Shown here: positions 34,604 through 42,728 of the stretch, one piece after another
How positions within the stretch are numbered: position 1 is the first letter of the stretch
Layout of the letters: each line of letters begins with the position of its first letter
Source of the DNA: Escherichia phage vB_EcoM_VR26
Reading direction: 5' to 3' (one strand)
Sequence record: NC_028957.1
DNA length: 64,000 bases
Made by a program: the position numbers and the translations under genes
Notes under the pieces: model-generated
What the model was told of the DNA's origin: nothing
What the model saw: only the letters and a program-made list of their open reading frames with translations
The model's database searches: none

Positions 34604-34972
34604 TTATGCGACTTTAATCCAATTATCTAAATTTAATTCACCCTTAGCTTTCATTTTTTCAATCAGAAGGTCTGCAGTGGTGCGACCATTTTGATACCAT
34701 GTAACATCTTCAGAATAACCAGTTTCTTCATCTTCATAGGTCTTACAACGAATCTTACCAAGAATCAAAGTTTTCAGTTCGTAGGTATCACCAGTAAAAA
34801 AGTTTGTTACCAAAATTTTCCAGGAGAAGTCATCAGAAGGACCTTCAGGAGTCATGCAACCAACAAATTCAAACTGTTCTTTATGCAAGTGCCATTGGAG
34901 TTCTTTAGTTTCAATGGCTTTATAACCGTCGTGGTCTTTACCTTTGATGTATGAGTTAAGATTGATTTTCAT
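34604..34972 (-). CDS. Hypothetical protein
   Basis: 122-aa ORF; GGAG Shine-Dalgarno; early-type promoter upstream. Confidence 0.55.
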   Translation of the reverse strand: MKINLNSYIKGKDHDGYKAIETKELQWHLHKEQFEFVGCMTPEGPSDDFSWKILVTNFFTGDTYELKTLILGKIRCKTYEDEETGYSEDVTWYQNGRTTADLLIEKMKAKGELNLDNWIKVA

Positions 34973-35013
34973 TTTATTCTCCAGTGTTTTATTGTGTAAC
35001 TCAGTATGGAATC

Positions 35014-35043
35014 ATTATGCACTGGTCAAACCCTGTTGTAAAC
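35014..35043 (-). promoter_or_regulatory. T4 early-type promoter (GTTTAC-N18-CATAAT)
   Basis: Same conserved cassette as at 9098 and 52018. Confidence 0.55.
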
Positions 35044-35053
35044 CTTTTTATGG

Positions 35054-35082
35054 AAATAAAAAAGGGACTCCGAAGAGTCCCT
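35054..35082 (-). terminator. Rho-independent terminator (AGGGACTC-cgaa-GAGTCCCT then T-run)
   Basis: Perfect 8-bp stem immediately after stop of small basic ORF. Confidence 0.75.
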
Positions 35083-35086
35083 GAAC

Positions 35087-35248
35087 TTATGCTTTCGGCT
35101 TACCAAAGCAAGCTGCATCGGCACGCAATACCGCACGAGCACGAGCCTGAAGTTTATCAGTCACCTGATTGATTCGCTTGTTGGACGCACGCTTGTAACC
35201 AGCGCGTTTGGAGGAGCCATCAACAACTTTAACTTCTTTCTTAGCCAT
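35087..35248 (-). CDS. Small basic protein (53 aa; below ORF-track cutoff; 30.9 position)
   Basis: ATG-to-TAA ORF MAKKEVKVVDGSSKRAGYKRASNKRINQVTDKLQARARAVLRADAACFGKPKA; CGT/GCT-biased codons; followed directly by strong terminator. Confidence 0.45.
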   Translation of the reverse strand: MAKKEVKVVDGSSKRAGYKRASNKRINQVTDKLQARARAVLRADAACFGKPKA

Positions 35249-35646
35249 ATTAAATTCTCTTTAAAATAGAATGCAGGACTTATTGACATTGCCCGCGCAA
35301 GCCCTCGAAGGGAACATTAGGTTTCGGATATTTAACGGCAGGATAACCATAAACCTCGCCATCATACCTTATAGCTCTTATCTGTTGCACACCGTTAGCT
35401 TAAAGGTTCCGGGTTCGATTACTCGAGGATAAGATATATACTGATGGATATATAGGCCTTGAGGCGTACTCCCGATTGGCCATCACCTCGGGGTAGCATG
35501 CACTTGCCGCTATAAAATAACATTCAAGAGGTACACCATAAAACTGCCGAGGTCTTAAAACTATAATGATTCGCAAATCATTAATCAGACAGTTCGATGG
35601 CTCCTCGATTTTCTAGCCGCACTTAAGGTAGCGAATCACCTAAAAC

Positions 35647-35901
35647 TTACTTCAGAGTAACGACAAAATGGCGAACAGCTTTGCGAGCTGCAGATGCCAG
35701 CGGCTTAGCAAATTTCAGTTCATCTTTAGCTTCGAGCACAGCGCGAAGGTCGGTTTGTACCGGGTTAAGATGTTTGAAATACTGCAGAATTTCCAGTGCT
35801 TCGGCTTCAACATCAATAGATGCGCCGTAGTTTTCGTGACCGTTATTCCATGCAGTGCGTTGCAGTTCAAGAGCGTGTTGTAATTGTTTGTTTAAAGACA
35901 T
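35647..35901 (-). CDS. rIII: rIII lysis-inhibition accessory protein
   Basis: 84 aa from internal ATG (MSLNKQLQHALELQ...); sequence matches my recollection of T4 rIII (82 aa), which is not certain; upstream part of the track ORF uses rare codons and contains a late promoter, so is treated as leader. Confidence 0.6.
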   Translation of the reverse strand: MSLNKQLQHALELQRTAWNNGHENYGASIDVEAEALEILQYFKHLNPVQTDLRAVLEAKDELKFAKPLASAARKAVRHFVVTLK

Positions 35902-36041
35902 TTTAGAAGCCTCAATATGAGGTGAATATTTGGTGGACACGTTCTTCTGAATTTCACTTCCTTTCGGCAAGTCTCTCAGTTGTAGTCCACCGTTTAGGAT
36001 TCTCCGGGTAACTAACTGGTCCGGCAGCCAATCCATATTAT

Positions 36042-36049
36042 TATTTATA
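36042..36049 (-). promoter_or_regulatory. Late promoter TATAAATA (minus) upstream of rIII
   Basis: Exact motif on minus strand in the 31-rIII intergenic region. Confidence 0.5.
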
Positions 36050-36058
36050 ACGCTAATT

Positions 36059-36406
36059 TTACTTATAAAGGCAAGGAACAGCTTTATAATGACAGGTCAC
36101 AAATTTCTGCTTAACTTCTTTAGCCTGCTTAAGTCCCAAGGCAACCAGAGGATGTGGAACGTTTGCAATCTTGCCAACCGGAAGAGGAGTCAAATCACCT
36201 ACTTCACAGAAGCCTTCAGGAACATCTGAACCAATCGAAAATACTTCACACATCTCGGGAATTTCACCCTGATGAAGTTTTCCGATAACGATACCTGATG
36301 CCGTAGTTTCTTCGTCACCAGCTTGCTTTGGCTCAGAAACCAAAATAATATATTCACCTACTGCTTTAATTGGTAATTCCATATTTAATCCATGTTGTTT
36401 GGTCAT
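36059..36406 (-). CDS. 31: Co-chaperonin gp31 (GroES analogue)
   Basis: 115 aa; [16 protein letters not shown]...[13 protein letters not shown] near-identical to remembered T4 gp31; alternative start 36382. Confidence 0.88.
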
Positions 36407-42494: not shown

Positions 42495-42728
42495 TCAATA
42501 GCGGTTATAACCTCTAGGACCAAAAGAGTTTGCACCCAGGCGCTCATCTTTCTTTTTAGCTCTTGCTCTAAACCCAGAATCACCTGTTTGGTCTTTCAGT
42601 TCTTTTAACAATTTGGCCTTCAGGTCAGTAATGAAACCAATCCGGCGGTCTCCCTTGTAGACATAGATTCCATCATTTCTGTCGCCATATGCCTTTGTAA
42701 CTCTGTCATTTGAAATTAAGTTTAACAT
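42495..42728 (-). CDS. Truncated paralog of the Alc-like N-terminal domain
   Basis: 77 aa; LISNDRVTKAYGDRNDGIYVYKGDRRIGFITDLKAKL versus downstream LISNDMIVDVYGDRHDGIYVYKGSKNVGFLTDLRKKL; GAGGA Shine-Dalgarno. Confidence 0.45.
   Translation of the reverse strand: MLNLISNDRVTKAYGDRNDGIYVYKGDRRIGFITDLKAKLLKELKDQTGDSGFRARAKKKDERLGANSFGPRGYNRY

Follow-up and report, generated by a model that had tools for sequence, protein, structure and literature searches.

The 64,000-nucleotide (nt) stretch of Escherichia phage vB_EcoM_VR26 analyzed here (NC_028957.1; hereafter the window) belongs to a T4-like phage in the genus Gaprivervirus, with ~96 to 97% identity to TH15, SP18, and the VR phages across positions 35000 to 35750. 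In this part of the window, genes 30.8, 30.9, rIII, and gp31 all lie on the minus strand, and rIII is separated from 30.9 by a 398-bp gap. No open reading frame (ORF) of 60 amino acids (aa) or more is present on either strand of positions 35249 to 35646, the longest being 58 aa (TTG start, 35400 to 35576, minus strand) and 53 aa (plus strand). The original prediction had singled out this gap as an ORF-free, GC-richer, structured region that could hold a small RNA, a degraded mobile element, or a replication or regulatory site. The perfect hairpin on which it drew, TAATGATT-TGCG-AATCATTA, is real and spans 35564 to 35583 (it had been placed at 35563 to 35584); the rise in GC content is also real but modest (0.42 to 0.46 in the gap versus 0.32 to 0.40 in the downstream 30.x genes). 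A single 8-bp hairpin per 400 nt is unremarkable by itself. What sets the region beyond chance is comparative evidence: parts of the gap are common to ~994 phage records, and four of its modules carry compensatory base changes. The small-RNA option is supported in a more specific form, in that the gap holds a gene-strand array of separately folding RNA modules, one of which is a copy of a ToxI antitoxin repeat.

We compared gene-strand gap sequences from 13 annotated phages and from 34 further loci fetched via the rIII gene. The non-coding gap is kept at the same place in every T4-like relative examined and varies in length from 157 to 398 bp (TG1, 157 bp; S16, 204 bp; T4, 244 bp; Merlin, 305 bp; Klebsiella phage TNG87, ~338 bp; window, 398 bp). 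Alignment with these relatives, which the original prediction had proposed as a check, resolved the gap into discrete modules with compensatory changes, whose presence and order vary between phage genera: M1-M2-M3-M4-M5 in the window, M1'-M2-M4-M5 in T4, M5-M4-M1 in TG1 and CHI14, and hairpin-M4-M1-M3-M5 in Klebsiella phages. SP18, which is 96% identical to the window elsewhere, has another M1 allele; VR20 carries a further module, M6, in the slot held by M3 in the window; and M3 is 90 to 95% identical between coliphages and Klebsiella phages, although the rIII proteins of the latter are only 62 to 76% identical. These data show that the modules are shuffled and exchanged between phages as cassettes. 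To that extent the suggestion of a degraded mobile element holds, but the modules are under structural selection and show no decay. M6 (ACUAUCACGCGUCAGAAAAAGGUUAUCUGUCUAAGUCGUGGU) was found downstream of rIII in nine loci (L034 to L038, L040, L041, L043, and L053); its inner stem covaries (CAGA/UCUG to CAGC/GCUG), and a GGUUAUC motif is common to M6 and M4. Karamvirus and Klebsiella phages have further small hairpin modules, M7 to M9.

The first module of the island, 5 nt past the stop codon of rIII, is M1 (35606 to 35641, minus strand; AGGUGAUUCGCUACCUUAAGUGCGGCUAGAAAAUCG), which BLAST and a covariance model identify as a solitary ToxI-type antitoxin repeat (pseudo-ToxI) with an AAAU motif in its 3' tail. 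When the gap was queried against Escherichia coli genomes and PLSDB plasmids, matches fell only in its first ~44 bases, which correspond to M1. All six plasmid matches inspected share one layout, namely, a promoter followed by 2.9 to 6.6 tandem repeats of 35 to 38 nt, a terminator, and a ToxN/AbiQ gene, with 4.6 copies in pMB9_2, 4 in pU90-1, and 6.6 in Yersinia pYpstbSP1303.1. The original ToxIN plasmid, pECA1039, was also among the M1 matches. M1 (AGGTGATTCGCTACCTTAAGTGCGGCTAGAAAATCG) is identical at 33 of 35 bases to the 35-nt ToxI copies of the pYpstbSP1303.1 array, and the two internal positions at which it differs (T9 to C and A25 to G) compensate each other, turning a U-A pair of the pseudoknot stem into C-G. 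Identity to the ToxI of pECA1039 and pMB9_2 is 89%, within a range of 84 to 89% to three ToxI types.

A ToxI covariance model was built from 12 bacterial ToxI units only, with no phage sequences, and its E values are roughly calibrated. It scored M1 at 46.4 bits (E ~1.6e-8), the only significant match in the 64-kb window, and the published phiTE pseudo-ToxI at 48.8 bits. The second-best match (42550 to 42585, minus strand; AGGUGAUUC...GAGCUAAAAAGAA; 14.3 bits, E ~0.4) lies within coding sequence and, at only ~14 bits, was judged a chance match; the model thus found no second ToxI-type copy in the window. Across bacterial units and phage alleles, stem B (positions 9 to 11 with 23 to 25) is kept as UGC/GCA, CGC/GCG, or CAC/GUG, while stem A, read by eye, is GGU/ACC, or AGU/ACU in CHI14. 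Mutation of C27 or U28 inactivates ToxI, and both bases are altered in the phiTE pseudo-ToxI (PMC3475682); M1 retains both. Altogether, these data demonstrate that M1 is homologous to ToxI. It shares with the arrays of pECA1039, E. coli O157 pMB9_2, and Yersinia pYpstbSP1303.1 a 35- to 36-nt unit, both pseudoknot stems, and an A-rich 3' tail with AAAU; unlike them, it has no tandem repeat (the array threshold being at least ~1.9 repeats), no promoter or terminator of its own, no adjacent ToxN, and no 5' AAAU. Since no ToxN/AbiQ gene stands beside M1, whose neighbors are rIII and 30.9, M1 is an orphan antitoxin-like RNA and not a toxin-antitoxin locus. The Rfam scan that had been proposed for the region returned nothing real: Rfam 15 gave no real match in the window, at gathering or permissive thresholds, or in eight relatives. 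Rfam also gives no match on genuine ToxI arrays and so appears to be without a ToxI model, which explains why it missed M1.

M2 (35520 to 35608, minus strand) is a long imperfect hairpin of ~89 nt, the tip of which is the perfect hairpin described above. RNAalifold, run on nine variants, predicted 25 pairs, 6 of them compensatory and with the apical hairpin included; on the gene strand, two of the pairs are invariant G-U. M3 (35373 to 35511, minus strand), a multi-helix RNA of ~139 nt recognized by covariation, belongs to no known family and is present in 405 phage records. An alignment of 14 sequences supports 42 pairs in ~7 helices, with 97.8% of cells paired and 17 pairs changed on both sides, whereas none of 500 shuffles reached the observed values and slid controls were 28 to 41% paired. 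The invariant loops of M3 read CAAG(U/G)GCAUG, (G/U)(A/U)CCCGGA, and GCUAACGGUG(U/A)GCAACAGAU. On the opposite strand, the conserved G-U pairs of M2 and M3 would turn into A-C mismatches; what folds is therefore the gene-sense RNA and neither DNA nor an antisense transcript. Proposals that M3 is a tRNA-like element, a ribozyme, a retron or DRT RNA, or an AvcI-like RNA were dropped because no model or pattern matched, and ARAGORN found no tRNA or tmRNA gene in the window.

M4 (35317 to 35366, minus strand), identified by its covarying arms, is an H-type pseudoknot of ~50 nt. Its stem 1 consists of 3 bp, a bulge, and 3 bp, the 5' arm of stem 2 lies within the stem 1 loop, and a conserved A-rich linker reads GU(U/A)AAA(U/C)A...(G/A)AAA. 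The outer arms of stem 1 pair in 16 of 16 variants (5 distinct sequences), the inner arms in 10 of 10 (4 distinct sequences), and the stem 2 arms in 12 of 12 (8 sequences, e.g., GGUU/AACC, UUGUGAG/CUCACAA, and UUGGUAGU/ACUACUAA); arms mixed between types seldom pair (2 of 20 for outer arms, 1 of 12 for inner arms, and 0 of 56 for stem 2). In its stem 1, A stretch, and covarying stem 2 pseudoknot, M4 resembles the TenpI/CptI antitoxins (PMC3401426, PMC12283969), and its length is close to the TenpI mean of 50.9 nt and within the TenpI/CptI range of 39 to 57 nt. Unlike them, it is a single copy, and blastn gave no sequence match in E. coli genomes or plasmids; the likeness is one of architecture only, not of detected homology. 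A preQ1-type riboswitch was also considered for M4 and dropped, as no model or pattern matched. M5 (35298 to 35315, minus strand; GU(U/A)CCCUUCGAGGGCUUG) is a small conserved hairpin found in nearly all relatives, sometimes directly 3' of the rIII stop codon, and one variant, in locus L063, is compensatory when read by eye (CCCU/AGGG to GCCU/AGGC). M5b (35273 to 35298, minus strand), also read by eye, is a variable hairpin just upstream of the 30.9 ribosome-binding site; its stems differ between lineages but stay self-complementary (GCGGG/CCUGC, GAACUGG/CCAGUUC, and GGGAGC/GCUCCC). Taken together, M2, M3, M4, and the M5 hairpins are real structured RNAs, selected folds that are exchanged as cassettes and travel with ToxI mimics.

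The M1 slot of other phages holds other ToxI variants, which we queried against plasmids. The allele of CHI14 and locus L067 matches ToxN-linked arrays on Shewanella pSBP3 and E. coli pRHB38-C24_2, with 85% identity to the pSBP3 unit; the L126 allele matches an array on Enterobacter plasmid P1, with 77% identity to its ToxI; and the phiTE pseudo-ToxI is 95% identical to the ToxI of pU90-1. Judged by these sequence matches, the phage ToxI-like alleles appear to track different ToxN systems. Solitary ToxI-like repeats occupy this fixed conserved locus in ~100 sequenced T4-like phages and also occur elsewhere, in Salmonella phage 7-11, ~75-kb coliphages, ~110-kb Klebsiella phages, Erwinia, Acinetobacter, and Vibrio phages, and several metagenomic viral contigs. 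Among all the phage copies found, only that of phiTE is annotated (as "pseudo-ToxI"). The viral contigs include L109, L116, L117, L119, L120, and L123, and a promoter or terminator of its own accompanies some of the copies in these phages and contigs; in L109, two diverged ToxI-like repeats follow a sigma-70-type promoter.

Outside the T4-like phages, the modules stand in other surroundings. In unrelated phages of ~76 to 90 kb, either M3, M1, and a terminator or M1 and a terminator alone lie between an SSB gene and a sigma-like gene; PKM.Lu.22.1 (76 kb, Grimontviridae) has the former arrangement, next to an SSB whose C terminus is ...DDDCPF, and Salmonella phage 7-11 has the latter in the same slot. 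When the remaining non-T4 contigs with a pseudo-ToxI were searched by nhmmer with M3 and M4 profiles, neither module turned up. In phi92 (Stephanstirmvirinae), a T4-type island sits within the tRNA cluster, on the tRNA strand, and is followed by a C-terminal rIII fragment. The 30.9 start codon is fused to that fragment (L005, 2907 to 3337), which looks as if a unit of rIII tail plus island had circularized or been tandemly duplicated before insertion. Two related contigs (L065 and L066, ~1621 to 1640) have only the rIII fragment and TTTATTGGAGATT, joined straight to a tRNA, an arrangement that suggests a deletion between direct repeats. In phiTE (L111, 2948 to 3040), the half repeat of the pseudo-ToxI runs into sequence resembling the 3' half of a tRNA (...GCAGGTCCGAGGTTCGAACCCGTCCAGTTCCACCA). 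Together, phiTE and phi92 link ToxI mimics to tRNA genes.

The signals around the island point to a single transcript. An exact match to the T4-type late promoter consensus, TATAAATA, lies between gp31 and rIII (36042 to 36049, minus strand), upstream of rIII; from established knowledge of T4 late promoters we take it to function as one, and transcription reading through into the island probably starts there. The window as a whole has 17 TATAAATA matches where chance predicts 4.35, and most of them are on the plus strand within the first 22 kb. Positions 35249 to 35646 contain no site resembling a promoter or a terminator, and the first terminator comes after 30.9, an intrinsic one with an 8-bp GC-rich stem (5 G-C pairs) followed by the T-run TTTTTTATTT (35063 to 35082, minus strand), which ends the rIII-island-30.9 transcription unit. 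Given the late promoter upstream of rIII, a gap free of internal signals, and the terminator after 30.9, the modules are most likely made as part of the rIII-30.9 transcript.

On this evidence we lean, by a little over even odds, toward the view that rIII and 30.9 are separated by an island of independently folding RNA modules with an anti-defense role, in which M1 acts as a ToxN decoy in the manner of the phiTE pseudo-ToxI. It is probably a phage counter-defense locus that has gone unnoticed in T4-like phages. The mechanism we envisage is adopted from that established for ToxI and pseudo-ToxI. The island would be transcribed on the gene strand within the rIII-30.9 transcript, up to the terminator at 35063 to 35082. 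On infection of a host with a matching ToxIN, host transcription would stop and the labile host ToxI would decay; the phage-made M1 pseudoknot could then bind ToxN, probably after ToxN had cut the AAAU in the M1 3' tail, and the A-rich tail left by that cleavage would fill the ToxN active site, so that the RNase stayed inactive. The ToxI alleles held in the one slot differ between phages, each fitting another ToxN-associated array. As for M2 to M5, we hypothesize that they may be further RNA decoys or helpers directed against other RNA-binding host factors. A bolder version, which we put forward only tentatively and consider rather doubtful, is that the gap is a hypervariable RNA anti-defense island whose modules each serve as a decoy to another RNA-binding immune effector and whose cassettes pass from one phage family to another in an arms race against host alleles; M1 would then counter ToxN, M2, M3, and the M4 and M6 pseudoknots would represent new anti-defense RNA classes, and the basic gp30.9 might be an RNA-binding partner.

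The closest precedent is the phiTE pseudo-ToxI (Blower et al. 2012, PMC3475682). Both it and M1 are phage-encoded, intergenic, orphan ToxI copies with no toxin gene nearby, their scores in the bacterial ToxI model are similar, and antitoxin RNA mimicry is the proposed mechanism for both. They differ in that phiTE is an rV5-like phage with 1.5 repeats of a pU90-1-like allele that bears the inactivating changes C27G and U28A, whereas the window phage is T4-like and has exactly one pECA1039-like repeat, with C27 and U28 kept, set close behind rIII within a larger array of other structured modules. There are parallels in other defense systems: RNA anti-CRISPRs are solitary CRISPR repeats. PARIS, for its part, is neutralized by a viral tRNA (PMC11464382). 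In both of these cases, as proposed for the island, a phage carries a stand-alone copy of an RNA that is normally bound by an immune effector; the island differs in the effector families concerned and in stringing several unrelated RNA modules at one locus. Gene 30.9 and ToxI mimicry as a kind were already known; what is new is a clear orphan ToxI mimic in a shuffled array of modules supported by covariation.

Several observations weigh against an anti-defense role. One is the sensitivity of T4 to the toxIN of E. coli. The T4-type allele (GGAGATTCACTGCCTTAGTGTGAGCTAAATC) is the top ToxI-model match at the homologous position and resembles the CHI14 allele, but it is weak, at 11.5 bits in T4 and 17 to 19 bits in relatives (E ~0.1 to 0.3), and T4 itself probably has only a diverged ToxI-like element; its sensitivity fits such a diverged allele but shows that the element is no general shield. 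CHI14, which carries M5-M4-M1, is aborted by both ToxIN-Pa and TenpIN-Pl (PMC5449768). Its abortion by ToxIN-Pa fits allele specificity of M1, since its allele is only 62% identical to ToxI-Pa; abortion by TenpIN-Pl means that M4 does not block that system. At best, then, M1 can protect against the matching allele only. Copy number is a further difficulty: M1 is a single copy, compared with at least 1.9 copies in bacterial antitoxins, and wild-type phiTE, with 1.5 copies, is still aborted and escapes only after expansion to 4.5 to 5.5 copies or capture of toxI (PMC3475682). The AAAU is present on the 3' side of M1 (GAAAAUC) and missing from the 5' side (UAAGUUUUAGG). With no promoter inside the gap, production of the island RNA depends wholly on read-through from rIII. 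Thermodynamic folding gives no signal for the region as a whole, with minimum free energy z scores of -0.31 (minus strand) and -0.14 (plus strand).

Nor did M2 to M6 show bacterial counterparts in E. coli genomes, PLSDB, or 185,579 species genomes. PLSDB was queried by blastn with the whole gap and with concatenated variants of M2, M3, M4, M5b, M6, and M9, and E. coli genomes with the whole gap and with variants of M4. The invariant 20-mer of the M3 core was absent from the 185,579 species genomes and, in metagenomes, was confined, one chance coding match aside, to the rIII-30.9 loci of T4-like phages. A degenerate M4 pattern gave 41 scattered single matches in the same genomes, versus an estimated ~26 expected by chance, none of them in Enterobacteria or in tandem, although distant homologues may escape the pattern.

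The same data can be read in other ways. One, which we regard as unlikely, is that the modules are cis-acting parts of the rIII/30.9 mRNA (rIII 3' stabilizers, RNase processing sites, or a 30.9 translational operator) and that the ToxI-like piece is an inert leftover of plasmid recombination. In T4-like phages the island does always lie between rIII and 30.9 without a promoter of its own, and M5b and hairpins like it lie right at the ribosome-binding site of 30.9. M2 and T4-type M1 both contain GGAG, the motif at which RegB cleaves, and RegB and RIII are functionally linked (PMC9409239). That phages with M1 and M4 are still aborted by ToxIN-Pa and TenpIN-Pl also suits this explanation. However, in unrelated phages M1, or M3 with M1, occurs without rIII or 30.9, with its own terminator after it or its own promoter before it, and the island has moved into the tRNA cluster of phi92; the order of the modules is not fixed relative to rIII and 30.9 either. 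An inert relic, moreover, would not be expected to keep the ToxI pseudoknot by compensatory change or to come in allele types that each match a different ToxN-linked array.

We think it improbable that the modules are instead regulatory small RNAs that act in trans, released from the transcript by cleavage as are the stable RNAs encoded in the T4 tRNA cluster, and aimed at host or phage mRNAs or proteins unrelated to defense. Their strong structural conservation would be in keeping with such a function, as would the position of the phi92 copy inside a tRNA cluster and on the tRNA strand, the fusion of the phiTE copy to a tRNA-3'-half-like sequence, and the sigma-70-type promoter ahead of the two ToxI-like repeats of contig L109. 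M1, however, has a specific and well-understood partner family in ToxN, and neither a base-pairing target nor an Rfam family match was identified for the modules.

A feature acting at the DNA level, such as a recombination hotspot, a junction of mobile cassettes of the PeSL type, a homing site, or an origin, with the palindromes serving as DNA, is very improbable. Replacement in the manner of cassettes, with M3 and M6 in one slot, direct repeats flanking the phi92 insertion, and the adjoining PeSL-like unit of terminator plus promoter at 35014 to 35082 all speak for it. The PeSL cassettes of T4-type phages (PMC2839356, PMC4122927) are, like the island modules, short, non-coding, and tied to modular shuffling in T4-like genomes, but a PeSL is an early promoter plus a terminator hairpin, whereas the modules are pseudoknots and multi-helix folds without a promoter, and the gap has no promoter-like site; rIII is not mentioned in either PeSL paper. 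More directly, the conserved G-U pairs suit one strand only, as RNA, and the covariation of the M4 pseudoknot has no meaning in a DNA duplex. A replication site, as first suggested for the gap, found no support at all. Finally, the notion that small proteins are encoded in the gap, for instance by the 34-aa and 58-aa ORFs, has next to no probability and was rejected, for although small ORFs are annotated in pEC-M719-6WT.2 and TNG87 and the 34-aa ORF (over M4 and M5) is open in the window and T4, it is so between these two only via two offsetting frameshifts that alter the peptide, is stopped in the Klebsiella phage and Merlin versions, is much shorter in S16, and has no ATG in TG1, and the substitutions keep base pairs, not codons.

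The anti-defense role of the island, if it holds, bears on well-studied ground: no lytic phages have been studied more closely than T4 and its relatives, which are also in wide use in therapy cocktails, and ToxIN is a model abortive-infection system that has been tested on them. A 2017 paper on T4-like phages escaping ToxIN gave phiTE as the sole phage shown to escape by antitoxin RNA mimicry (PMC5449768). Our literature search found no later case than phiTE and no paper linking the rIII-30.9 gap or T4-like phages to ToxI-like sequences (most subscription journals were outside its coverage). The phiTE-only picture is changed by repeats at a conserved locus in T4-like phages, by their spread to unrelated families, and by alleles that appear to track ToxN systems. 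Host-range prediction would become testable as the question of which phage allele fits which plasmid toxIN, and there would be a simple route to engineering phages past ToxIN. The accompanying modules, M3 above all, are strongly supported structured RNAs of no known family and offer a starting list for new RNA counter-defenses.

Downstream of the island, the 53-aa basic minus-strand ORF at 35087 to 35248, which had been described as an unannotated small gene with a strong terminator, is indeed a conserved gene followed by the terminator at 35063 to 35082. The gene, 30.9, has long been known and carries the annotation gp30.9 in T4, SP18, VR7, and S16; it had escaped notice only because of a 60-aa cut-off. 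The window gp30.9 matches PHROG 1427 (E = 2.9e-26) and has no match in Pfam or PDB. The protein is 53 to 60 aa long and very basic, and in T4-like phages its gene always adjoins the RNA island, which makes an RNA-binding role conceivable. Several deposited phage genomes mis-annotate gp30.9 as "1,4-alpha-glucan branching enzyme."

Upstream, rIII (35647 to 35901, minus strand; 84 aa, start MSLNKQ..., stop TAA at 35647 to 35649) was assigned from the annotation of its relatives and from homologues in 34 viral contigs. The mechanical ORF is longer, at 129 aa, with an ATG at 36036 (35647 to 36036), and this long form is annotated in SP18, while T4 and most relatives start rIII at MSLNKQ (window position 35901). 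The long start is probably wrong, since it begins 6 nt after the late-promoter consensus, and the mRNA would probably be without a ribosome-binding site for the long form. The next gene, gp31, spans 36059 to 36406 (minus strand). On the other side of the terminator, a sigma-70-type (early) promoter-like site for gene 30.8 lies outside the island (35014 to 35042, minus strand; TTTACA, a 17-nt spacer, and CATAAT, with 10 of 12 positions matching). A terminator hairpin followed directly by a sigma-70-type promoter, as at 35014 to 35082, is the PeSL-like arrangement described for the hyperplastic regions of T4-type genomes. Gene 30.8 itself (34604 to 34972, minus strand) is named Phage_30_8 by Pfam, while its homologue in EAWsc9 (L003, 1105 to 1473) is annotated as "Imm63 domain-containing protein."

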